Assembly: GCF_038025025.1 (NCBI RefSeq) | Contig: NW_027117342.1 | Coordinates: 2,046,001-2,110,000, forward strand | Origin: Phyllosticta citribraziliensis | Taxonomy: Eukaryota | Length of the DNA: 64,000 bases | Reading direction: 5' to 3' | Part shown: positions 40,916-61,189 of the stretch, piece by piece | Layout of the letters: each line of letters starts with the position of its first letter | Position numbering within the stretch: position 1 is the stretch's first letter | Position numbers and translations under genes: made by a program | Notes under the pieces: model-generated | Told to the model about the DNA's origin: nothing | Seen by the model: only the letters and a program-made list of their open reading frames with translations | The model's database searches: none

Positions 40916-43900
40916 TTACCCTGCCGGTCCCGTCACCCCGCCACGGCAGCTGAGGCTCGCCGACGAACAAACCATCTTCAGCCGCCCTGCGCTCTCTCCA
41001 ATCCACACCCTGTACTCGCCCCCAACCGCAGGAACAATCCATTTCTGCTGCCGCACATCCCACACCGACACGTCTCTCCGACTCAACGTCACCGTCACCC
41101 TCTCGCTCTGTCCAGCCCCCAGCCTCGCCGTCTTGGCAAAGTCCCTCAGTTGTATCATCGCCGTCTCGAAGCCCGTGTTGGCAGGGAATTGCACATACGC
41201 CTGTACCACGGCCTTGCCAGCCTTGCTGCCCGAATTGCTCACGGTGACGGAGACGTTGAACGCAGTATCCCACAATGCCGCGTTGCCGCCCTGTCCGCCG
41301 CCACCGGGCGCTGCCGTCTTCGCCACGCTGCTGTATCCCTCGGGATAGGGATATCTCGACGTCGAAGCCCTTGCCTTGTCGGCATCAGCCCTGCTCAGCC
41401 ACGAGTAAATGTATCGCCAGATTTTGGCAAACCCCGCCGGCTCATACGCCTCTGACGCCGGCGGTCTGCTCTTGTCGTACGTCGATTGGGCCGTTTCTTT
41501 TCGAGGGGGCGCATCGGGCGGAGCAGACGACAGTGAAACTCCAGCCACAATGGTCGCTTCTCCGAGCTCAAAGTTGGCATACGACAGCCCGTGACCAAAG
41601 GGATACCGTGGCGCGATGCCCTTGTGATTGAGGTATCGGTAGTCGATATACAACCCTTCCGAGTACGTGTCTTGCGCCTGCCCGAGCTCAAACCCCACGA
41701 GGCCGACCGACTTGGGATAGTCATCCTCGCTCTTGGGGATGCTGTACGGCAGGTGCCCGCTAGGAGACTCGTCCCCAAACAACACCTTTGCCAGCGACTG
41801 GCCCGCCTCTTGACCTGGAAGGTGAGCAAACAGCACAGACTTGACAGATGGCAGGTCGATCCATTCTTCCACGAGTATAGGTCCCACCGTGTGGACGATG
41901 ACGACCACCTTCTCGTACTTGTTCGCCGCCGCCTTGACGAGCGCGTCTCCGTCATGCCACGCATGCAAGCCAGCAACGTTGCGGTCCCCAGCGTTGCCTT
42001 CCACCGTAATGTAATTTTCTCCCGAGTCGGCGCTGATGAACACCAAAGCAACGTCGCCTTTTTCTGCCACGGCCGTCAGAGGGAAAATGTCTGTCAAATA
42101 CGACGTGACATGACTTGAACGCTCTCTGATGGCTGAAATGGGGTCGTCCATGTGAGGGTACTCGGCGGTGCCGGAACCCCATCCCATCCCGAGCGTGCCC
42201 TTGTTACACCCTCGGTCCGGGCACGAATTTGGCCCCGCGGGATTCTTCGACGCACCGCTGCCAAATATCTTGAGCGGGGTTATGCTGTCGAGGGGCAGCA
42301 GGTTGTCTTCATTCTTCAACAACGTTACGGCCTCCATCGCGATATCCCTCGCAACATCGGCGTGGTCCTCTTGCACGTTGACAAATTCGTTGGCCGTGCC
42401 AGAAGGCGAAATCAGAGCACCCGGGTACAGCAATCCTTTGGCGCTTTTGGTCCACGAGGAAAAATTGGGCTCCGGAAACCCCTTGTCTTGGTTCATCTGA
42501 TACCACGCCGCCACCACGCGCGTCGTCATGTCATTCAGTCGCTCCATGGGCACAGAGTCATTCAGGGCAGCCTCTGTCAGGTGGGACGCCCACCACGGCT
42601 CACCGATCAATGGAATCGAGGCGTCTCCTGGCATGGACATGTCGAGCCCGGCCAGCGCGGCCGCTACGCCCGAAATCTGCGCGAGCCAATCGCTCATAAT
42701 CAGACCTTGGAACCCCAGCTCGTCCTTGAGAATTCGGTTGATGAGATAGCTGTTTTGCGTACAAGCCGAGCCGTTGACCTGACTAGGAATCAGCAAACCT
42801 CGTTCGGGAACACTCGAGTCGACCTACAGCGTTGTATGCCGCCATGACTGCTCCCACACCGGCATGAATGCCATCTGCAAAGGGCCACAGGTACAGCTCG
42901 TGGAGCGTCCGGTCGTCGATGTTGGCGCTATAGCCAGGCTGAAGCGGGTTGTACCTGCGCAATCAATCAGTACCATTCCATCACAGACGATACCTTGGAA
43001 AATGGCAGCTCCTGGGCACAGCTGTGGTTCCGGATGACAGCTTCCTGTACTTTTTATAGAGCACAGCCAGGGTGTGTCATTCCTTCTGACACCACGGCGC
43101 CGTTCCAACAAACGACCGTCCTCTCGTAGAAACAACTCACTGGCGGTACATCTCCTGCTCGTTGCCAATTAAATGCTTAATCGTCGCAATCACGCCTTGA
43201 CTCTGGACCCCGCGAATCGTCTCCGCCGCACCAACACCCTGCAGCACAGGGTCCGCGCCAAAGCCCTCCCATCCCCTACCACCCCTCAGTTTCCGCCCGA
43301 GCGGTCCCACCGAAGGGCCGAGATGAAAGTTGATGCCTTTCCCGCGGAACTCCTTGCCCAACGCGGCGCCCCGCGCGTACATGAGCTGCTTGTTGAAGGT
43401 CGCGCCAACGGTGATGCCGGGCGGGAAGGCAGTGACATTGTCCGTGTAGCGCACGCCGAGGGCGGAGTCCTGCAAGCACAGTTGTGGGAAGGACAGGCGT
43501 GGGACGCTCCCTGTGTTCCCAACGCAGCGCCCTGTTGCCAATTCATTCAGTGTCTGCCGCTACTAAACTCTGTGCAGGGACGCAAGTTGGACGATTGCCG
43601 CTTCTGTCATTGAGTGCGCAGACAGGTACGTACGTACCCATGAGAATCCCCGTCCCGCTCGTGATATTCGTCTTCTCCGCCAGCGTCATGCGGGACACCA
43701 GCTTCGCCGCTTTGGCGTAGGCTTCGCCCCACTCGTCGAGCCATCCGGCCACGGGCGTCGGATACCATGGCGGCGAGGTGTACTCGCTCGGCGCCGCCTT
43801 GCCGTCGCCGCCGTCGCTCTTGCGTGAAGAGTCCGAGTGTCCGTTGTCCAGCCAGAAGGTCAAGCGCGCGTCGCTTGGGAGGTGAGGCAGTATGTCGGAG

Positions 43901-48431: not shown

Positions 48432-49943
48432 TCACGTTCCTTCGAAGGCGTTGGATGGAGGATTCTTCAAGTCTTCGAGACTCCATTTGCGGATTGGAAG
48501 ACAGGTGAGGGACGTCTGATGACCTCGGCGGAACATTTCGATTCCCGCCCACGCAATCATCGCCGCATTATCTGTACACAGCTCCAGGGGAGGGTACAAG
48601 AGTTTGATGTCGGGATAGCCTTTGTAAGCGAGAAACTCGGAGAGACTTTTCAATTAGCTCAAGGGACGCGAAGAGGAAGGGTGTACTCACACGTGTCTCA
48701 TGTACATGTTGGACGCCACGCCTCCGCTCACCACGACTGACATTGTTTGAGCAAGCTCGGGATTTGTCTCTGTGATTTCCTGCAGCACAAGAAAAATTCG
48801 GCTGGCGAGATGCTCAAACGTGACTCTCATGACCTCACGAGCCATGCATTTCCGTTCTTCTTCGCTGACATCATTTGGAGCCCGCGGCATCTTGCTCACT
48901 CTGCCAGTCTCCTTGCTCATCCCAAATCTGATGAAGTTCTCCACCGAAGAGAGCGTCCCAGCAAAGCTCATGTCCATTGAAGACGCCCTGAGCCCTGCGG
49001 GAGATGCGCCCATCGGTGGCTGGAAGCCCCAGCCCCAGCTGGTGATTCGTTTCCCAAGCTCTTCTCCCCTATTCCTAGGGGGCCTGTAGTCGTAATCTCT
49101 GGGGCCGTCTGGAAAAGCAAAGCGCTCAAGGAGTCGGGCGTACATGGTATCACCCCAGGCATCGACGAGGTTTTGAGGTACAATCAGACGTCCAGCCTTG
49201 TCGAGACATTGCCCAATGGCACGATCAGTGGTGGAGCTAAGGACCTGATGTGATTCCAGTGAGTCGGATTTAATTATTAGGGTGTGGCCCCCAGACACGA
49301 GCAGAGAAACAAAAGGGAATCGAGGCTCTACTGGCCGTGTATTTTGGCCGGTCGGCCCGCTACCACTCGGATCTGACTTGTTCGTAAGCGCAGAGACTAG
49401 ACGTGGCGTCAATGCATGCGCATGCATGTGGTGTACACCGATGAGAGGAATGGCCCATGCAGCCGCGAGGCCTTTGGCAGTTTGCAGCCCCGTGGAGAGG
49501 TTCGACATCATGCCGGGGCCGCGGGTGACGGCGATGAAGTCTGGCTTCATTCGAAAATCTACTGTGCTACCATCTTCCGAGGGCACGGCAACAAGGTGCA
49601 AGCTAGCGGAGGGGGTTTCTAGTTCAATTCTCGGGAGATGGCGAATCGCTCTCTGAAGAAGAGGGGCGATGTTTTGGTGATGCGACTCTAGTGCGGCTAG
49701 CGGGTGGATACCCTTGAATGAGGTATTGTTTGCCGTGACCTTGTTATGAAAGTGGAGAACAGCGTCGCTCTCGTCTTTTGGCCATGGACGCCTGTTATGA
49801 TCTCTGGTCTCCAGCACGGCCACAGAAGTGTCGTCGCATGACGTCTCGATGCCAATGGTGAGGAGATGGCGGCGCTGTGATGGTCCGCTGACCGGCCTGG
49901 CGAGGACTGCCGGACGAGCGCGGCAGAAGGATGAGCGGAGCAT
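48432..49943 (-). CDS. QRI7: Mitochondrial tRNA N6-adenosine threonylcarbamoyltransferase (Kae1/TsaD/Qri7 family)
   Basis: Arg-rich presequence; IGIETSCDDT, AVTRGPG, VHHMHAHALT, LLVSGGHT, VVSGGVASN, LCTDNAAMIAWAG; one intron near 48650-48690. Confidence 0.93.
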
Positions 49944-50248
49944 GGCTAGACCCGACGTGCTCACGAGGACATGTGGATAGTGGCCGGTAAGGTCTGCAGG
50001 TGGTGTTGTCAGGTCGTCGAATGGAAAAGATTCAGTGGCGGTGCGCCCGTGCGCCGAACGAGCACATGCCTGGAACGAGTTGGGGGGCCAGTGGCCTCGA
50101 CGTCACTCCGGCCCTCCCTCCCTGCCAAACCAACCAACACAACATCCCCCCAAAGGAACACCAGCGCCTCTTAAATCCTAGTCGCCTCCTCTCCCCTCCA
50201 CCCCTCCGCTGCCGACCCTCGCCATTATGTGAACGCCTTGGTGCGACC

Positions 50249-53032
50249 ATGGCCGACATCAAGAAATCCACCGACGGGCCGACGCCCCACTCCCCTACCG
50301 CATACGACCTTACACAGCTCCCCGACTGGGACAACGATTTTGTTGACGACGACGGCGTCGCCAACTTCGAGCGCGCCCTGCACGCACCGGAGCCATCCCC
50401 CTCCAGCGACAATCTGCTCGAGCAGCAGCTCCCCAAAAAGTCCCATTTCATCACCGCCCTCAACGACTGGCGCCCCGTCCACCAACGCATTCGGAAAAGG
50501 AAGAAACGCACACCGAGACGCGGCAAGGACGAGACACGAGAGGGCTTGTCCTATAGCGTTCTCAAGTGGCCATTCCTATTCATCGTCTTTGGCTGGCTCA
50601 TAGGCCTCGGCATCTCCTACCTGTTGACTCGGTTCTACATTTACCTCTACGAGCATTGGATAACATGGAGGGGCAAGCGCGAAAAGCTGCGCCGGAACCT
50701 GAGCAGGACAGAGACATATGAGGACTGGGTTGCTGCCGCAAAAGAGCTGGACAAACACCTTGGGAATGATGAGTGGAAGAAGAAGGATGCGTACGCCTAT
50801 TACGATGCCAAGACAATCAAACGCGTCAGAGACCAATTGTCAAAGCTACGTGCCCAGGCCGAGCAGGAAGAGAGCACTCTCAACGGAGATTCCGAATCTG
50901 GAGACCGTGCTGTGCATCAACTCCGCGGCCTGTTGGAAGCTTGCGTCAAGAGCAATTTCGTTGGCTTTGAGAATCCGCACTTGTACAGCGAAAGCTACTA
51001 CGGGACCAAGAATTTGCTGCAATCCTACATTGACGAGGTCACGCAGTCGATAACTCTTCTTCAGGATACTGATGCTCTCAATACCGAGGAGAAGCGAACG
51101 CTGTTCAAACATCTGCAAGCCAACTTTGGCCGCACCGCACTGTGTCTCTCAGGCGGCGCTACTTTTGCGTACTACCACTTTGGCGTTGCCAAGGCTCTTT
51201 TGGACGCCAACCTACTTCCCCAAGTCATCACCGGAACTTCTGGCGGCGCTCTAGTCGCAGGATTACTCTGCACCCGCACCGACGACGAACTTAAGAAACT
51301 TCTCGTGCCAGCATTGGCCCATCGAATCACCGCATGTCATGATGACATGGTCACTTGGGCCAAGAGGTGGTACAAGACTGGCGCTCGTTTTGACAGTGTC
51401 GACTGGGCTAGGCGTTGCATGTGGTTTACCCGTGGCAGCCTGACATTTCGCGAGGCCTACCAGCGGACAGGCCGTATTCTCAACGTCTCCTGCGTTCCTT
51501 CCGATCCACATTCTCCTACGATTCTCGCCAACTACATCACAGCTCCCGACTGTGTAATATGGTCGGCTACACTTGCTTCAGCTGCAGTGCCAGGCATATT
51601 GAACCCTGTCGTTCTCATGAAGAAGAAGAAAGACGGCACTCTCGAACCCTATTCGTTTGGACACAAGTGGAAGGATGGAAGTCTTCGCACAGACGTGCCG
51701 CTTAAGGCTTTGAACATGCACTTTAATGTGCGATTCTCCATTGTCAGCCAGGTCAATCCGCACGTAAACCTCTTCTTCTTCTCATCGCGTGGAACTGTTG
51801 GGCGGCCCGTGACCCACCGCCGCGGACGTGGTTGGCGCGGAGGCTTTTTGGGATCGGCTACCGAACAATATCTCAAACTTGACCTGACAAAGTGGCTCAA
51901 AGTTTTGCGACACCTTGAACTTCTGCCAAGGCCTCTTGGTCAGGATTGGAGCGAGATTTGGCTCCAGCGCTTCAGTGGGACAATCACCATTTGGCCCAAG
52001 TCCATTCCCTCGGACTTTTACTACATCCTGGCGGACCCTAACCCGCAACGGTTGGCAAGAATGATACACGTGGGCCAGCAGTCAACCTTCCCAAAACTCA
52101 AGTTCATTGCAAACAGGATGACAATAGAGAGGTCGATCGAAGAGGGGAGGAAGATGACAAGACCGCAGAAAACAAAGGAGGGTGGTTTGGTAAATATCTT
52201 GTCTGAAGAAGACCTAAGAGGATTGCTCAAGGAAGCCCAAGAAAACAACGGATCCGTTTCACGGACACCAAAGGCCTTTTCAGCTGCAGCCTCATCATCG
52301 GGCTCTTCTGACAAGAGTTCGCCACCTTCCAATCGCCGCTTCCGCCAGCCAGGTGGCCTCGACGGTACCCTATCCCCTCAGTCCAATCCCGACGGTTCCA
52401 CCGACGTCCCAGAATCAGGACGCGCTTCCCCTTCGCTATCGAAGCGAATCAGCGGATGGTGGTCGTCCCGATTCAATGCTCCGCCATCCCCACGCACCGC
52501 CTCTCTGCAGCGCAACGCTCATCTGCGCGGTCCTTACGCCGGCGAGCGAGCCGGCAGCATGTTCGAGCTGCGCCCGCCGCGTGAATACGTCGAAGATGAA
52601 ATCTACCAGCACCCGCAAGGCAACGGCTCCTCGCACCGCCAGCTCAACGACAGCCACAATGACCGGCGGCAGTCGGTCGCCCGCGAAATCTTCCGCCAGT
52701 CGCGCGTTTTCATCGACGACTCGGACACCGAGGGCGAGCCCGACACGGATGGTGAGGCCCCTTTCATCTACGACAATGGCAACTTTTCGTCTCGCGACAG
52801 CAAGTTTCAGCGAGACTACGAGGAGGGCCGCGAGGACGAGGCTGATGAGGATGAAGCTTCCGTCACGCAAGGCGACGAGTGGGACGCGCAAGACGAAGTG
52901 CTGGAGGAGAGGGTGAATGAGGATGATGCCGTGCAGCGCTTTTTGGGCAACGAGTCGGATGAGAGTGGCGCTAGTGGGTCGAGTGACGAGGTCGGTGGCA
53001 CGAGGAAGAGGAGAGGCACGTTTGTTGGATAG
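50249..53032 (+). CDS. Patatin-like phospholipase / triacylglycerol lipase (TGL3/4/5 family, DUF3336 + patatin)
   Basis: Transmembrane segment, LCLSGGATF, ITGTSGG (GxSxG), WKDGSL (DG motif); single exon from ATG 50249. Confidence 0.93.
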   Translation: MADIKKSTDGPTPHSPTAYDLTQLPDWDNDFVDDDGVANFERALHAPEPSPSSDNLLEQQLPKKSHFITALNDWRPVHQRIRKRKKRTPRRGKDETREGLSYSVLKWPFLFIVFGWLIGLGISYLLTRFYIYLYEHWITWRGKREKLRRNLSRTETYEDWVAAAKELDKHLGNDEWKKKDAYAYYDAKTIKRVRDQLSKLRAQAEQEESTLNGDSESGDRAVHQLRGLLEACVKSNFVGFENPHLYSESYYGTKNLLQSYIDEVTQSITLLQDTDALNTEEKRTLFKHLQANFGRTALCLSGGATFAYYHFGVAKALLDANLLPQVITGTSGGALVAGLLCTRTDDELKKLLVPALAHRITACHDDMVTWAKRWYKTGARFDSVDWARRCMWFTRGSLTFREAYQRTGRILNVSCVPSDPHSPTILANYITAPDCVIWSATLASAAVPGILNPVVLMKKKKDGTLEPYSFGHKWKDGSLRTDVPLKALNMHFNVRFSIVSQVNPHVNLFFFSSRGTVGRPVTHRRGRGWRGGFLGSATEQYLKLDLTKWLKVLRHLELLPRPLGQDWSEIWLQRFSGTITIWPKSIPSDFYYILADPNPQRLARMIHVGQQSTFPKLKFIANRMTIERSIEEGRKMTRPQKTKEGGLVNILSEEDLRGLLKEAQENNGSVSRTPKAFSAAASSSGSSDKSSPPSNRRFRQPGGLDGTLSPQSNPDGSTDVPESGRASPSLSKRISGWWSSRFNAPPSPRTASLQRNAHLRGPYAGERAGSMFELRPPREYVEDEIYQHPQGNGSSHRQLNDSHNDRRQSVAREIFRQSRVFIDDSDTEGEPDTDGEAPFIYDNGNFSSRDSKFQRDYEEGREDEADEDEASVTQGDEWDAQDEVLEERVNEDDAVQRFLGNESDESGASGSSDEVGGTRKRRGTFVG

Positions 53033-53569: not shown

Positions 53570-56500
53570 TCAAGAGCGAGCCTGTCCTTTCTTCCTCCTT
53601 TTGGCAGTGTTGGGCATCTCACTAGACGCAGGCCGCTTGCTAGCGAGGCGAGCCATGCTCCGCGTGACGACATTCGGACGAACAACCATATTAGATGCCC
53701 TCGAACTCCTCGCCTTCCTATCCGACCTGTGGATTGAGCTGTAATTCTCCCGAGGTGATTGCGGAGGTGCCTGTGAATCCATATCCCAGTCTTCATTCGG
53801 CGGCGCAGCCACAGACGTAGAGTCCACAGGTGGAAAGTAGTTTACTTGATAAATTCTCTTTTTGCGATCTTCGATGCGATCAAAGTAGCCCCTTTTAAGT
53901 CCGTTCAGCTGCGGTCTATTATTGAACGCGGCGGTGCGTTCGTAACGGTTGGCGTCATCCGCCAGAGATCTCGCGTGGTCCTCGCCCAGCTCTTCGAAAG
54001 GGTTGTCGGGCTTGACGAGGTAAGCCTCGCTGAGATCTTCGAGCTTGGCCGCGAAGCGATTCAGCTCTTGTTCGAGTTCTTCGCGTTCCAGAGGCTGTTT
54101 GAATGGTTCGCCATTGCTTTTAATGTCGACTTTGAGAGCAGGTTCTTCCTCGAGGTTCCTGAGGTACTCGTCCACATATTCAGTAAAGGGAATTGGCTCT
54201 CGAGTTTTTCGCGCTTTACGGGTTATGCCCCTTTTAAGTGATGCCATTCTGTGCAATTTGAAAGTGCGTTTCACTGCTTCTGAGAGTATGGGGCAGTTTG
54301 TTTCGCTCGGTAGAGCGAGAAGCCCCGATGGAGCCACTGTGTTTCGATGTGAGGCGTCAACGATCCTGCGAAGCAGATCTTCGTAGTAGTATTCCATGGT
54401 GTGAACGACCGGCTTGTTGTACTTGATGTCGAAGGTCTGGTATTTGGTCATCATCTTGGGCAACTCGAATTTCAACGGGTCATACAGCGTCCTTTTCACT
54501 TGCTTTTCTCTCTCCTTTCTGGTGTCAACTCCCCGTGTTGTGAGGAGATCGGCGATTTTTTCGCGATTCATGTAAGAATAGTCAAGCTCGACGAGGTCGC
54601 TTCTATCCTTGATCCACGCAGGGGTTTGGTTTCGTTGACTCTCCGGCCACATTCGATTTAAACTGGTAGACCATAACCTCGGATTGTCATCGATGAGAGG
54701 AATCCCTGAGTCTGCCGCGTGGGGAGTCTGTTTGTCGAATTTTCCCTGAGCTTTGCTTCTTGGTTCGCAAAATTGAACGTCTTTGGAACTAACGTTTCGC
54801 AGGCATGACAGAAGAAAACGTCGATCGTCCGTCGTTGTGAGAGTTCGGAATATTAACGCAATGCCGACAACATCGCCAATGTTGTATCCCATCTTGTCAG
54901 AATCGGATTCCATGGATGGTCCAAAACTCCGGTAATAGGCACCGGGGTTCTCACTATTGCTTGGTATCTCCTTGAAGTGGTCAAGGAGATTGTAGACCCA
55001 GTCATGTTGTAAAAAGTGTTTGAGTAGATCTGCGTAGCGGTAGCGAAACCTGTTCTTAGTCCATAGGCGTTTGGGAACGCCGCAATCTTCATCTTCGCCC
55101 ACTTCGTCTTCGTACGCTCCGTGTTCGCCCAGTCTTAGTTGCCTGCGAACGTGAGCTATGATGGTCTCCAGGTCCAGATTTCCTGTACGGCATGGACACG
55201 CAATGTTTCGAGGATAGAACTGGCCAGTGCCCAAAGACCTGTGGAATACGCATCCGCCGGCCTCGTCTTGGGTTGGGAACTTGAGCGAATCTGGTCGTGC
55301 CCCGGAAAGATGGATACTGCCCAGCTTGGGCTGGGGCACAATTCTCTGGGGTATTCCCTGGTAGGGCTGTGTCTCATACTCTGGTCTGGGGGTTCCTTGA
55401 TACGAATTCGCTGTGCAGAATTAGCTGTCATCATTACCCAATACAAGCGTGGGAAAAGTTTTTTACCGATCGTTGCGTCCAACACATGGATATCGCTTTG
55501 AAAGTTGAACCATATTTTCAAAATATCTTTGTTGAATATGATCCGCTCCCAAAGATACCCGAGCTTGGATTTTTGTCAGTATTATATCTTGTGTGTTTAA
55601 TATGCTTGGTAATCGCTCACTTGGTCCACAGTCTCCTCATCCCTCTTCTCCAGCATGTGCAAGATATGAAAGCAAAAGGTGACGTGCCGATCAATCGCAA
55701 TTGATAAAACTGTGCACAGATTTTCAGTATCGTCCGTGTCCTCGCTCATATTCTCGAGTTCCTCTTCTTCTCTTTGTCTGCTGACGAGCTTGAACTCGGC
55801 GTCAATGCCAACGTAAGGACGGAGAATGGCTTTTGTTGCATTTGTTGAATCAAGGTGGACGTTGACGGGAATCTCTTGGCCTGGTCCAAAGGGCAGCAAC
55901 CGCACCAGTAGGTCCACAGCGGGTCGAATTTGATTTGCTTCTTTGATACTTACAACGAAGATGGAGAATATTGCGGGGAAATGTTTTGATGAACCAGATT
56001 GATAATTCTTCCCAACCTGAGGAGGTCGCGGCGAACCTGAGTCGAGTCCGCTTGGCTGATATCCAATTAGCTTCGTCGAGCAAAAATAGCCGGTTACATA
56101 CCAAGCTGAACTCGTTGGCGCAAAAATGTGGACCGTTCCCTAACTTTTTCTTCCTCCACCACCACCTGATTTCCTTGATCGGGAGGTTTGAGCTCTCAGC
56201 TTGTGCCTTTTCTGTAATCAGTTGATTGATGAGACTTTCCCCCGTTATTTCCGGGACCAAGCTGGAGAATTTGTAACGATTGTACCGGCTCCTTTTGACA
56301 GAGATTCGGCAACGGATATGGTCGCTGAAGGCTGCACCTATTACACTCGAACGTTCTCCAAACTTCAAGATGATATGGGTGCGGAGAGCATTGGAGACGA
56401 CTTCAAGGACGTTGTTGAGAACAGGTAGTGAGCCTGAAAGATCCGGCTTTGATAGAAATTTGTAAAACTCGAGCTGATCAAAGTAGTGGTACCTTTGGTG

Positions 56501-56683
56501 GAGAGGGTGTTGATTATTAAGCCAGATCCGAAGATAGTGATGTAGGACTTCTCCGAGGATGTACGTGAACTCATTGGGATCACCGATAATTTGTCTTGCC
56601 AGCGTACGATACAGCGTCCTGCCATCCCCGATTAGTCCGCCTCCTTGCTCTTTGATACGTACCAAAATTCTGCTGTTTTCCAT
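53570..56683 (-). CDS. Pseudo-OTU + DEDDy 3'-5' exonuclease protein, paralog A (~984 aa)
   Basis: Exons 56683-56102, 56055-55621, 55563-55467 and 55410-53570, all with GT-AG introns and in frame. OTU-like GDGRTLYRTLARQIIGD; ExoI VGIDAEF; ExoII KIWFNFQSDI; ExoIII YNIGDV. Confidence 0.8.
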
Positions 56684-57181
56684 AGCGGTTGGGGACAGAA
56701 TGGGGGATCTGGCTTTCGCAAAGTGTATTTGAGACTTCTGCTCATATTTGGGGATTTCAGAAACGTGATATTATCAATGGACAAAGAGAACTTCGCAGGA
56801 CGTCCGCTTTTGGCTGTCCATTGGGAACGGAACTCTATCGCCTTTGACAGAAGAATTTTCAAGGACCCAACAATCACGGCCAATTCTTTTGGAGCTCTGA
56901 CTCCATTCTTGACGCTATGATACAAGATACAAAGAAACAAAGAAGGTAGATTGGACCCTCGACCGCATGCAGCTCGTCGTTGAGGTTGGAGTGAAAGGTA
57001 GGAAGGACTGTGATAGTCCGAGGCGTCGTAGCAAGAGTCGTGGCACACGCAATCCCGATGTCCTGCGAATCAGCGGTTGAATGATTCCTGTTACTGCTCT
57101 CTTGGACTCCTGAATGCTTGCAGCGAATGAATAATCCTTGACGGAGCCCACCAATGTTGTATCATATCTTCGGCGAGCGAT

Positions 57182-60100
57182 TCACTTCTTAGTCTTTTTG
57201 GTCGGCACTGGGGTATCTTGTATGCCAGCGTCGTCGGTTGAGCGTTTCGATCCCGCAGAGCCGCCTCCTGACGAACCGCCACTTCCATATACTGCCCCAC
57301 TCCTTGTCGCCCGAGGTGGCGTCCTAGGTGCAGGAAAAGGAGTCGAAGGATCGGGCTCATTGAGAGCTTTTTGGAAAAGCAACTCGGAGAAGAAGCCTAC
57401 CCCCTTGTATGCTTGGATTGCATCGTTGATCGTTTTGAACCACGCCCGCCTAAGATCCACTGTTGCTTTTTCGCTGTTGCGCAATATCTCGTCTTTTTCG
57501 AATTCTGGCGTGTCCTCACTGGCGACCCTTTGAAAGAACTTCAGACCGAACTTGTCGTCCCAACTGTCTAATTTGGCCCGATTGCTCCACGATAACTCGA
57601 GCAGACGGTGCTTGAGCTCCAGTAGATTACTGACGATCCTTTCCGTGCTTTCTAAACCAGACTTGTCGGTATATTCATCCACGCCGGCAATGGTACGCTG
57701 AATAGCGGTAGGGAGGTACTCTCCGATAGTCATTGGCGGTTTGGTCCATCTTTTCGACATTGTGTCACTCTTTACCGCCATTTGAACTCCATGGGACACT
57801 GTGTAGCCATTCATCCCTTGACAATCAACCATCAGGCCTTTGGGGATGTTTGATTTTGAAGCTCCAGAGGCACGAGCACGCCAGAATATGTCTTCAATGT
57901 GACTCTCCATGCTTTGGACAATTGCTGGCCTATACCGGTCATTGATCCTGAAGTCCTTTGTCATGCCTTCTGCGAGTCCAAACCTGCAAGGATCGTAATT
58001 CTTCCTCCAGACGACGTATTGTTGGCTTTCTACTGACAGCTCTTTTTCGCAATACTCTTCTGCTAAAAGTTTTTTTGCTAACGGGTCTTCGTCGAGTCCT
58101 AGTCTTGCTTCTATGAGCTTTTCATGTGCCATGAAGGAGTTGTCGTGCAGAGCCAGGTCGTCCTTGCTTTCGATGAAGGCAGTAGTGCTCATAATCCTGG
58201 GGCCGCGCCCCTTCTTGGTTTCGTAGGTAGTGTGACCCAAAAAATAGTCCTCGTCTTCTTCATTCCACAGGTTCAGATCTGCAGACCACCCTCGGGCATT
58301 GTCTGAGATGAGCGGAATTCGTCTATCTCTTGCACCATTGGTCTGGCCATCGAACGGCGTCGATTGCGTGCGCCGAGTCTGGTCGTATTTCGGTGGTATC
58401 TCGTTCCAACTGACGTTCTTCAGGCGCGCAAAGAGAAGCTTGCGGTCGTCAGTTGTCGTCAAGAAGCGGAACATCAGCGCGATTCCAACGACATCCCCAA
58501 TGTTGTAACCCATTTTGTCTGATTCGATTTCCATTGATGGTATGCCAAGGCTTCGATAGAATCGACCGTTAGGAGCAGCGTTTTCTCTCGCCCATCGATT
58601 GGGCGCGTCTTTGAGGTGGTTCAGGATAGGATAAATCCAGTCATCTTGCATGAAATGTTGCAGAAGTTTTGCGTAGCCGAACCATTTTCTTTCGGTCCAC
58701 CATTCGCGTTTGGCAGAATCTCTGAGTCCGAGCTGGCGGCGGACGTGCGCTAGTATAGCCTCCAAATCCAAGTTTCCGTGTCGACATGGACAATACATCT
58801 TCCTCTTATCCTGTTCGATTGGCGCATTGAGGTGGAATTGACAGTCAAGACTTTCAGATGGAAAGAATAAATTTCTCGGCCGCTTATTCTGGAACAAGGG
58901 ATGGCTCAGCCTGAACCTTGGTCTTAGCCACGCTTCACTCTTCGGATGCTTGCAAGGCTTCCTCTCCGTCGATTGGTACAAATGAGCTTTGTCAGGTGTT
59001 AACTTTGTTCATGGTATTCATTTGATGAAGCGTACCAATCGTGTTGTCCAAAGTGCTGATGTCACTCTGGAAATTAAACCAGATTTTCAAGAGACCCTTG
59101 TTGAAAATGACGCGATTCCAAAGATCTCTGAGCTATGGATCTGTTAGTATACTTAAACATAGCTTAATGCATATAATTCCAAGAGTCTGCTTCCAACAGC
59201 GCACAATTCGATGTAAAAGGCTGACTTACTCGTGATACTGTGTCTTGTCGAGGGTTCTGAAGCATGTGCAGAATGTAGAAGCAGAAAGTGACATGTCTGT
59301 CCACGGCGATACTGAGAACCGTGCATAGATTTTCAGCCTCAGGGCCATCATCACCTTTCATTTTCTCCAGAACCTCCTCAGTTAGGTCTTTGTTGTCGCT
59401 GACAAGCTTGAACTCTGCGTCGATGCCAACGTAGGGAAGGATACGACCTTTCAGAGTAGACCGGAATGATTTGCTGTTATTGAAAGGTATGTCTTGGCCT
59501 GGGCTCAGGGGCAAGATTTTGAACAAGAGATCCAAGGCCGGTTTAATTTGATCTGGTGTCTTGACACTGACAACAAAGTTTGAAAATATTGCTGGGAAGA
59601 CTGAATTTCCCGACTCGTCCTGCCAGGTTTGTCCAACTATAGGTGGCACCAGATTTGCATTGGAACCAGTTGACTTTTCGAGAAATTAGCTTGAAATCAA
59701 GACGCTGACGTTGCGTGCTTACCGGTGCGAATTCATTTGCGCTGAAAAATGTTGTGGGTCTAGGATTTGCAGAGTCCCACCACCATTTGATCTCCCTGAT
59801 GTCAAGCTGCTGACTTTGGGCTTTGAAAGCACTCATGTAGTTGATGAGATCTTGCCCCGTGTCCTCCAAGATCAGACTAGAGTATATCATCTCTTTGTGT
59901 CTTTCCTGTTCCAAAATTCGGCATTGCATGTGCCGGCTGAGAGCAACGCCGATCTTTTCTTCGTCATTTGATCTTCGGACTATTATTTCAGTCCGAAGAG
60001 CGTTTGAAGTGACGGTAAGCACGCGAGCTAGAATGTCCGGTAATTTCGAATGACCGGGTCTCGAGAGATAAATATAAAAGTTTACCACTTGATTGTCATA

Positions 60101-60313
60101 CAGGCGGTATGTTTTGTGGAATGGATGTTTTGGATTTAGCCATGCTCGGAGGTAGTGATGCAATACCTCGTTGAGGATGTAGTTGAAGTTCCGTGGGTCG
60201 CCAAGTATCTGTCTAGCAAGAGCGCGGTATATGGCTCGGCCATCCGGGCTGTTGACCTCCCCAGGATTGTCGGAGCTTTCTTCAATCTGGTAGTAAGTTC
60301 TGTTGATAGCCAT
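57182..60313 (-). CDS. Pseudo-OTU + DEDDy 3'-5' exonuclease protein, paralog B (~978 aa)
   Basis: Exons 60313-59723, 59673-59230, 59132-59036 and 58986-57182. Intron positions and the 97-nt exon 3 match paralog A. Motifs PDGRAIYRALARQILGD, VGIDAEF, KIWFNFQSDI, YNIGDV. Confidence 0.8.
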
Positions 60314-61189
60314 AGTGTTCGAGGACAAGCTGAGATTGTGGGAGGAAATGGGCCGGACATGCGAGTCTAAGGCAGACGAATTATAATATTACAGTTCTCG
60401 TAACAAACAAAGGATGTAAAAGAAATCTACTGCAACCAGCTTCTTTTGAATGCCCTTTGTGCCAAATGCGAGATTCATAGTGCACAAGTCGGGACACAAT
60501 ATGACACTCCGCGTAAGCTGTGGTCGAGAGTCTCGGCACCCTGTTTTTCTTGAAGATTTAGGACCTAGCCTGCCTTCTCTTGCACTTCCTCTAAGAGAAT
60601 GGAATTCTCGATGAGCGCGTTGCTCGCGAGAGCATGTAATTGCGTGAGCCAAGCCATGTTGTGCGTTCCGATTTGGGGGAACAAGAGGAGAAAAGAAAAA
60701 GCAGCGACAAAGACCAGCGACAGCATGAAGACATTTCTGCTGAGATCAGATCAAGGGGGCTTTTTCGGAGGACTTGGAGTGCTTTGCTTGGCTGCTGCGG
60801 CGTGATTCAAAGCAGATTCGCGGTGTCTGGTGAAAGGCCGCTCACGTGGTAGTGGCAGGGAGCCTGTAGTTGTGAAGCAAGCAGGCTGAATCAGAGCTGC
60901 AGAAACTATTAGCCAAATTATCGAGCGAGCAATGAGAAGGTGTTGTTGATGTCCAGTGGCGGTAAATTTGAGGGACGGGAAGGGAAAGAATCGAGGCCGC
61001 CGGTCGGTCGGGGGTAGGGTCCGTGCATTCATGACCTACCGATACCACTCACCGCCGATGTTTGCCCGCTGCGGTCTGCGGTGGAGGAAGTCGGAGGCGA
61101 ATGAACAACGCAAGCTGAGGTCGTCCTTCCCCACCAAACACTGTCTCTATTCCAGCCAGACCATCGGTCATCGCCGCTCTCTTCGAAAG

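Follow-up and report, generated by a model that had tools for sequence, protein, structure and literature searches.

The window analysed here is a stretch of 64,000 nucleotides from Phyllosticta citribraziliensis, a member of the Dothideomycetes (Botryosphaeriales), covering positions 2,046,001 to 2,110,000 of the forward strand of contig NW_027117342.1 in assembly GCF_038025025.1. It contains two head-to-tail paralogous genes, here called A and B, which lie on the minus strand and occupy window positions 53570-60313, exactly the distance from the stop codon of copy A (53570) to the ATG of copy B (60313). Guided by structural models, we favour with moderate confidence the view that both genes would encode active 3'-5' exonucleases of the DEDDy type, each carrying a catalytically dead OTU domain as a scaffold, that this arrangement would be convergent with that of Pan2, and that the proteins belong to an unnamed, fast-evolving family of Pezizomycotina. 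Both folds are known in themselves; the fusion, a CHCC-containing insert within the nuclease and the family itself are undescribed, and no account of the fusion architecture was found in open PMC and bioRxiv text. All features of the two genes given below are on the minus strand.

Results

A pseudo-OTU domain fused to a predicted exonuclease

A full-length model of the gene A protein (P0001), built with 99 sequences, gave a predicted local distance difference test score (pLDDT) of 77 and a predicted template modelling score (pTM) of 0.80, with local values mostly above 90 for residues ~20-600 and low after ~760. The best Foldseek matches of this model were the EXO domain of Nibbler (E 3.9e-3), T. 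brucei RNase D, Egalitarian, Rrp6 and the WRN exonuclease, interleaved with OTU domains, and the alignments to the WRN exonuclease stop at model residues 565-566, just past the helix that carries the ExoIII motif. The ESM Atlas holds its own model of P0001, for which eight of ten matches were PF01612 (DNA_pol_A_exo1) clusters, the top one reaching the bar for naming. By structural Z score, RICE1 (13.5), Nibbler (13.3), RNase D (12.0-12.7) and Rrp6 (10.9-11.7) are all matched, WRN ties with RICE1, Nibbler and RNase D, and the inactive RNA binders Egalitarian and EXD1 are also found among the structural matches. As modelled, the middle of the protein is an RNase H-like DnaQ / DEDDy exonuclease fold of the WRN/RICE1/Nibbler/RNase D structural type. 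This agrees with the original prediction, made from the DNA letters, of a WRN/DEDDy-type fold in this region, and the Exo motifs fall on the expected strand and helices.

The catalytic motifs are shared by the two genes. ExoI reads PYVGIDAEFK in gene A (55789-55818; D279 and E281, within strand 275-286) and again in gene B (59407-59436; aa 277-286), where it forms a direct repeat with the gene A copy; the Asp and the Glu are each present in 54 of 57 family members. ExoII, LKIWFNFQSDI, lies at 55489-55521 in gene A, with N359 (51/62 in the family) and D363 (54/61) where helix 361-374 begins; its gene B counterpart spans 59058-59090 (aa 360-370). Exon 3 of gene A codes wholly for this region. 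ExoIII, DKMGYNIGDVVGI, is found at 54860-54898 in gene A, where Y547 (62/70) and D551 (66/72) sit in helix 542-564, and at 58481-58519 in gene B (aa 534-546). All three motifs, together with NLDLE, had been quoted beforehand as identical in the two copies and are indeed present in both as quoted. Overall, all five DEDDy catalytic residues are kept in both genes and in 88-95% of the aligned family members.

The N-terminal domain was modelled separately, from the 194 aa of copy A exon 1 and an alignment of 63 sequences, with a pLDDT of 91.7 and a pTM of 0.82. Searching the PDB with this model using Foldseek returned eight matches at E<=1e-3, with an OTU or OTU-like protease in every match listed; the top one was OTUD3 (4bou; E 2.3e-4, TM score by target 0.66). 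The OTU fold occupies aa 1-147 (56243-56683), close to the aa ~15-150 originally expected; a linker helix comes next, at aa 149-165. On this modelling the N-terminal part of the protein adopts an OTU fold from which the catalytic residues are missing.

The loss of the catalytic residues is read from two boxes. The sequence DGRTLYR of gene A (56606-56626) and its gene B counterpart DGRAIYR (60224-60244) presumably correspond to the OTU box D-G-N-C-L-F-R, in which the catalytic Cys normally stands at the start of the same helix. By alignment and model, Thr23 of gene A is the first residue of helix 23-32; by alignment, Ala27 holds the Cys position in gene B. Of 62 family members, 41 have S at this position, 13 T, 3 A and 2 N, with C, W and M found once each. 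The His box is YKFSSL in gene A (56258-56275; strand 137-144 in the model), with Lys138 aligned where homologs from lichen-forming fungi read H-[FY]-D-S-L, and MIYSSL in gene B (59873-59890), with Ile at the His position. The catalytic Cys and His are therefore both absent from copies A and B. Since both positions are substituted, the label 'pseudo-OTU' is justified for these two genes, and the earlier suggestion of a dead OTU domain holds.

The rest of the family is more varied at these boxes. The His is kept in a minority of relatives only, for example as THFDSL in P0007 and P0009. Ser at the Cys position goes together with an H-[FY]-D-S-L box in about a dozen members, among them P0007, P0009, P0011, P0012, P0015 and P0092 from lichen-forming fungi. 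Some short family proteins form another group, in which the His box has the pattern C-x-H-[RKT].

Between ExoII and ExoIII the fungal proteins carry an insert of ~110 aa. In gene A the two motifs are ~184 residues apart; in WRN or RNase D the distance is roughly 65-70. The insert, which is specific to this family, contains the motif C425-x2-H428-x14-C443-x-C445 in gene A (55190-55252), followed by GNLD (D451), and C426-x2-H-x13-C-x-C445 in gene B (58784-58843). Conservation across the family is nearly complete (C 73/73, H 70/70, C 62/66 and C 65/68, with D451 in 57/66), and from this pattern the motif is probably a zinc knuckle. The original prediction had missed it.

C-terminal to the nuclease, aa 621-984 of gene A (53573-54664) form a fast-diverging, helical half that is modelled with low confidence after ~aa 760. 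Each protein has a basic tail, KRRKK in A and PTKKTKK in B.

Departures from this layout were noted in two Phyllosticta homologs. The P. capitalensis protein P0006 is without the whole CHCC segment (aa 381-451 of the gene B protein), jumping from TIAHL to QLGL; here either part of an exon has been annotated as an intron or the deletion is real. In P0002 of P. citrichinensis the ExoII segment is replaced by ...VSLGADHIQQRY...SKRYQ..., which is another reading frame of the exon-3 region of the window (55463-55636). Judged from the sequences, the change in P0002 is likely to reflect a mis-spliced gene model or a frameshift in the P. citrichinensis genome.

Gene structure and transcripts

Copy A was spliced by hand from the DNA, and both NCBI proteins were then mapped onto the window. 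Gene A (53570-56683) has exons at 56683-56102, 56055-55621, 55563-55467 and 55410-53570, stop included, and encodes the 984-aa protein P0001, which is NCBI J3D65DRAFT_658177. Gene B (57182-60313), with exons at 60313-59723, 59673-59230, 59132-59036 and 58986-57182, again including the stop, encodes P0005, the 978-aa NCBI protein J3D65DRAFT_602719. The spliced translations equal P0001 and P0005 letter for letter, and the largest exon frame of gene A is 100% identical to J3D65DRAFT_658177. The expectation of two head-to-tail, four-exon paralogs of ~980 aa was thus confirmed. The description of the genes as unrecognised stands in part: they have no match in the hidden Markov model (HMM) libraries and are both named 'uncharacterized protein', but they were already annotated at NCBI with the same four-exon models.

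Each copy has three GT..AG introns, whose positions and phases are homologous between A and B, and the spacer from the stop of B to the ATG of A measures 498 bp (56684-57181). BLASTP of the exon-4 frames gave 33% identity (179/547; E 3e-68) and of the exon-1 frames 42% (102/242; E 1e-56), so that by sequence comparison the paralogy is far beyond chance. Identity between the copies varies by region: the OTU domains are 47% identical, the exonuclease cores 56-58% and the inserts 38%, falling to 29% over aa 621-760 and 18% over aa 761-984. The exonuclease core is thus the best-conserved part, a pattern of selection that we count in favour of the proposed reading.

Two public runs (X1 and X2) from two studies have contigs over the locus; they were labelled 'RNA?' by guess, and carry no RNA record. 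These contigs cross the introns of gene B at the exact predicted borders, skipping 49, 97 and 49 nt, and the skipped segments end in CT..AC on the plus strand, which corresponds to GT..AG when read along the minus strand. Run X1 has all three of these joints and X2 has two. The spliced contigs demonstrate that gene B is transcribed and spliced as modelled. For copy A no intron joint was seen, the contigs there being short and leaving 54764-55983 without cover, which is not evidence of silence. The proposed RNA check of splicing therefore succeeded for all three introns of copy B and gave no joint for copy A. The gene B contigs also run 303 nt beyond its stop, to 56879, ~200 nt short of the gene A ATG, and reach at least 287 nt upstream of the gene B ATG (span 60314-60600).

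A fast-evolving family in Pezizomycotina

Profile libraries did not recognise these proteins. Pfam returned nothing real on the eight raw exon frames (chance-level GRIN_C and PH_15 only) and no credible match for the nine first homologs (P0001-P0009) or for 28 long family members; PF02338, the Pfam OTU family (MEROPS C85), was not matched by any of the first nine homologs, nor PF01612 by P0001 or P0005. NCBIfam, PADLOC and PHROGs gave no match for either domain. An exhaustive profile search, in contrast with these libraries, found 203 representative proteins at E<=1e-3, 163 of them at <=1e-10 and 80 at <=1e-30. In 23 of the best 150 of the 203 matches, one unbroken alignment takes in the OTU part as well as the exonuclease part. 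Many of the short matches start or end at exon-border positions (P0052, P0059, P0083 and P0151 at profile position 371; P0069, P0071 and P0076 covering 219-339), which suggests that they are exon fragments from prokaryote-style gene calling and that the intron positions are widely conserved. The number of distinct genes is therefore lower than 203.

All matches that carry a name belong to Pezizomycotina, and their annotation is 'hypothetical' or 'uncharacterized'. The taxa comprise several Phyllosticta species, Aplosporella, Saccharata, Zasmidium, Pseudocercospora, Meristemomyces, Oleoguttula, Cryomyces, Lophium, Candelaria, Candelina, Piccolia, Cirrosporium and Geopyxis. The homolog search called for by the original prediction has thus placed the family, so far, in Pezizomycotina only, and with no HMM library match and no characterised relative among the named proteins, the claim that these genes are not plain orthologs of a known family was upheld.

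Several species have two paralogs. P. citribraziliensis itself has two, as counted in the protein database, and in Candelina mexicana P0009 and P0011 bear the consecutive tags M1836_002246 and M1836_002247 on one contig of 967,548 bp. A quick maximum-likelihood tree was made from 31 longer members, using the first 700 residues of each and Shimodaira-Hasegawa-like approximate likelihood ratio test (SH-aLRT) support only. It placed the Phyllosticta A and B genes as sisters (100) within a clade that includes Aplosporella (98), and the two Candelariales paralogs elsewhere. The A/B pair appears to be a tandem duplication within the Phyllosticta lineage and, from their placement in this tree, the Phyllosticta and Candelina tandem pairs provisionally look like independent duplications.

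Divergence within the family is high. Copy B is 51% (N-terminal half) and 38% (C-terminal half) identical to its P. capitalensis counterpart, and copy A shares 58-66% identity with P. citricarpa and 34% with Aplosporella. The adjoining patatin-like lipase, by comparison, shares 89% identity with the P. capitalensis cluster and 71% with Aplosporella. With this single control gene the sequence comparison is indicative, and suggests that the family evolves much faster than its neighbour.

Genomic surroundings

The lipase, a DUF3336 plus patatin-like protein, is encoded on the plus strand at 50249-53032, and a TsaD/Kae1-family gene (48687-50102) and a GH3 glycosidase (40916-42823) follow on the minus strand. 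In Aplosporella the lipase ortholog and the OTU-exonuclease ortholog both lie on a contig of 963,414 bp, which hints that their linkage is conserved there.

No terminal inverted repeats or long terminal repeats were found around the pair. The repeats present at the locus consist of the coding motifs that the two genes have in common, two short, chance-like pairs (71-83% identity) and one 20-nt inverted pair in the spacer. The G+C (GC) content of the two genes is 0.48-0.49, against 0.55-0.59 in the neighbouring genes and 0.543 in the whole window. We considered repeat-induced point mutation as a cause of the low GC and fast divergence and rejected it, given that TpA/ApT (0.58-0.61) and (CpA+TpG)/(ApC+GpT) (1.17-1.30) equal those of the rest of the window.

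Among the viral structures of BFVD the OTU and the exonuclease were matched separately, and no viral protein with both folds was found. The top viral matches to the model were baculovirus VP80/P80 capsid proteins (E 7.6e-4 to 1e-2, mostly over ~175-200 aligned columns), and weak Pfam matches to AcMNPV Ac75 were seen at aa 293-371. The resemblance to VP80 is probably not meaningful.

Discussion

In the mechanism that we propose, the pseudo-OTU domain would be packed on the nuclease (as in the whole model, pTM 0.80) and serve as a scaffold or recognition surface, and the exonuclease would remove nucleotides from single-stranded 3' ends by two-metal-ion hydrolysis, with Tyr547 positioning the water. 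RNA would be a more likely substrate than DNA, a lean we take from the relatives with this type of structure, the majority of which have RNA 3' ends as their substrate. The CHCC knuckle may stabilise the insert or contact nucleic acid, and the variable C-terminal half with its basic tail could set partners and nuclear localisation.

A number of our results weigh against this proposal. Neither domain could be tied to a known family at the sequence level: none of the 63 members of the family alignment matches the Pfam OTU family (PF02338) even at E<=1, and only 3 of the 63 match PF01612, all below threshold (best E 0.057). Comparison of the family alignment with E. coli RNase D (NC_000913.3) by hhalign gave a probability of 0.2 and an irrelevant 19-column match, while the family profile found four weak matches among PDB sequences (best bS18m, E 0.17), none of them relevant. 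The full-length model, a long query, had no Foldseek match at E<=1e-3, Nibbler being the closest. The two-metal site that the four acidic residues may form is placed by secondary structure and structural alignments only. An exonuclease fold does not guarantee activity either, as Egalitarian and EXD1 share it, and the minority of members with Ser plus His-x-Asp suggests that some relatives may have an OTU domain that still functions. Two further attempts were uninformative. The RNase D homologs among the best 120 were enterobacterial only and at least 86% identical, hence of no use for a diverse profile, and provided no sequence-level bridge to PF01612. Prediction of a heteromer of the A and B exonuclease regions (200-640) scored 0.08 against a mark of 0.34, with alignments unused and the partner fold uncertain in at least one run, and says nothing either way.

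Other functions for the same protein have to be weighed against an RNA 3'-end nuclease with a pseudo-OTU scaffold. Since WRN, a DNA enzyme, ties in Z score with RICE1, Nibbler and RNase D, which act on RNA, the fold alone cannot separate the two substrates, and a DNA-directed, WRN-exo-like 3'-5' exonuclease with a nuclear role in DNA repair, in recombination or in the processing of ends deserves consideration. We regard it as unlikely: the RNA enzymes score equally well, and Pfam finds no helicase, polymerase or other DNA-repair domain attached. That the nuclease is catalytically silent and the protein an RNA-binding adaptor, in the manner of Egalitarian, EXD1 and animal Maelstrom, seems to us very unlikely. 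Two of these adaptors do share the fold, but the DEDDy residues are kept in both copies and across nearly all aligned members, and passages of PMC4408791 describe the inactive Maelstroms as being without their DEDD residues and the amoeba protein that keeps them as active. The least credible of the three is a working OTU hydrolase with a Ser/Thr nucleophile, which would make the protein a bifunctional protease-nuclease. The Ser found at the Cys position in 41 of 62 members, and the formal Ser-His-Asp set of the dozen or so members with an H-[FY]-D-S-L box, would suit such an enzyme; against it, genes A and B have no triad (Thr or Ala; Lys or Ile), most of the family has lost the His, and we know of no OTU with a Ser nucleophile.

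A different kind of explanation concerns origin, namely that the pair came from a mobile element or virus, has either been domesticated or remains selfish, and is not a component of a host pathway. The patchy distribution, the multiple paralogs per genome, the very fast divergence and the low GC relative to the neighbours all fit this idea. So does the occurrence of OTU-like proteases in Helentrons and of DEDDy exonucleases in rotifer Terminons, described in passages of PMC6431247; this is the closest literature found, and there the two are separate elements and not a fusion. Atlas feature matches for the exonuclease also include rotifer clusters, with PF01612 in 13-19% of members, which we treat as a lead only. 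On the other side stand the missing terminal repeats, the failure to find a transposase, reverse transcriptase or Rep domain, the housekeeping genes on the flanks, the count of only two copies in P. citribraziliensis, introns that are homologous in both copies and spliced in RNA, and the separation of the two folds in viral structures. Taken together, there is no sign of a mobile element and we give this origin a slim chance; fast evolution, patchiness and low GC leave room for a conflict-related or exogenous source.

Returning to the nuclease with a pseudo-OTU scaffold, fast divergence and adjacent paralogs are often seen in genes under genetic conflict. Identities of 38-51% between two Phyllosticta species (lipase 89%), together with adjacent paralogs in two distant lineages, make the family a reasonable candidate, on sequence evidence, for a component of RNA silencing or genome defence in Dothideomycetes and lichen-forming fungi. 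A bolder version, which we think improbable, would have it as a rapidly evolving, Pezizomycotina-specific nuclear nuclease that trims 3' ends, the OTU fold serving a DEDDy exonuclease with a zinc knuckle as a built-in specificity or regulatory subunit. It would then be a second, independent invention of the Pan2 type, serving a conflict-driven pathway such as small-RNA maturation or the control of transposons or mycoviruses, and the Ser-for-Cys and His-x-Asp of the lichen-fungal proteins would mark an OTU hydrolase of the serine type, the first of its kind.

An active nuclease would be a new, lineage-restricted fungal 3'-5' exonuclease and the second natural case, after Pan2, of a disabled deubiquitinase fold joined to a DEDD nuclease, which would suggest a general design principle in which pseudo-deubiquitinases act as nuclease cofactors. 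The family can also seed a new Pfam/InterPro entry, and would correct at least two gene models that are likely to be mis-annotated.

Comparison with known systems

Measured against its structural relatives, the fungal protein differs in both sequence and layout. The WRN exonuclease and At5g06450/RICE1 share only 11-17% sequence identity with the fungal domain, which does not match PF01612 at threshold and adds to their fold the ~110-aa CHCC insert, the N-terminal OTU fold and a C-terminal extension of ~400 aa. FAM105A is a catalytically inactive OTU. Compared with it and with the OTU deubiquitinases OTUD1, OTUD3, OTUD5 and nairovirus vOTU, the fungal domain is without the catalytic Cys and His, has no Pfam OTU match and is fused to a nuclease. 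According to PMC11347159, most MUT-7 homologs have a MUT7-C domain appended to the exonuclease; in contrast, MUT7-C (PF01927) was found in none of the 9 + 28 family proteins searched, so that the accessory domains differ from those of Nibbler/MUT-7.

Maelstrom (MAEL) and the arenavirus NP resemble the fungal proteins in combining a DEDD-type fold with a Cys/His metal site, putative here, near the last catalytic helix. They provide a precedent in that, as related in the same passages of PMC4408791, adding a zinc site to a DEDD fold is compatible with RNase activity if the DEDD residues are kept; these are missing from the inactive Bombyx, Drosophila and mouse Maelstroms. The details differ. MAEL, a member of the DnaQ-H (DEDDh) branch, has an E-C-H-C site whose Glu is supplied by strand 2, whereas the fungal C-H-C-C lies wholly within one insert and ExoIII is of the Y-x3-D form. 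The MAEL family PF13017 was matched by one of 63 members, below threshold (16.9 bits against 22), and MAEL structures were not among the structural matches listed.

The nearest architectural parallel is Pan2, in which an inactive deubiquitinase-fold domain is likewise fused directly upstream of a DEDD-superfamily 3'-5' exonuclease. Passages of PMC6547884 describe the UCH-like pseudo-deubiquitinase and the DEDDh RNase of Pan2 as one module, with conserved residues of both shaping the RNA cavity. The two systems differ in the fold of the dead domain (OTU here, UCH/USP in Pan2), in the branch of the nuclease (DEDDy with ExoIII Y-x3-D here, DEDDh with H-x4-D in Pan2) and in the WD40 and Pan3-binding segments of Pan2, with no counterpart of the WD40 domain found by Pfam among the first nine homologs and 28 long members; no Pan2 structure appeared among the structural matches listed. 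As both components come from different families, OTU and DEDDy, the resemblance to Pan2 is likely to be one of convergent architecture and not homology of the fusion.

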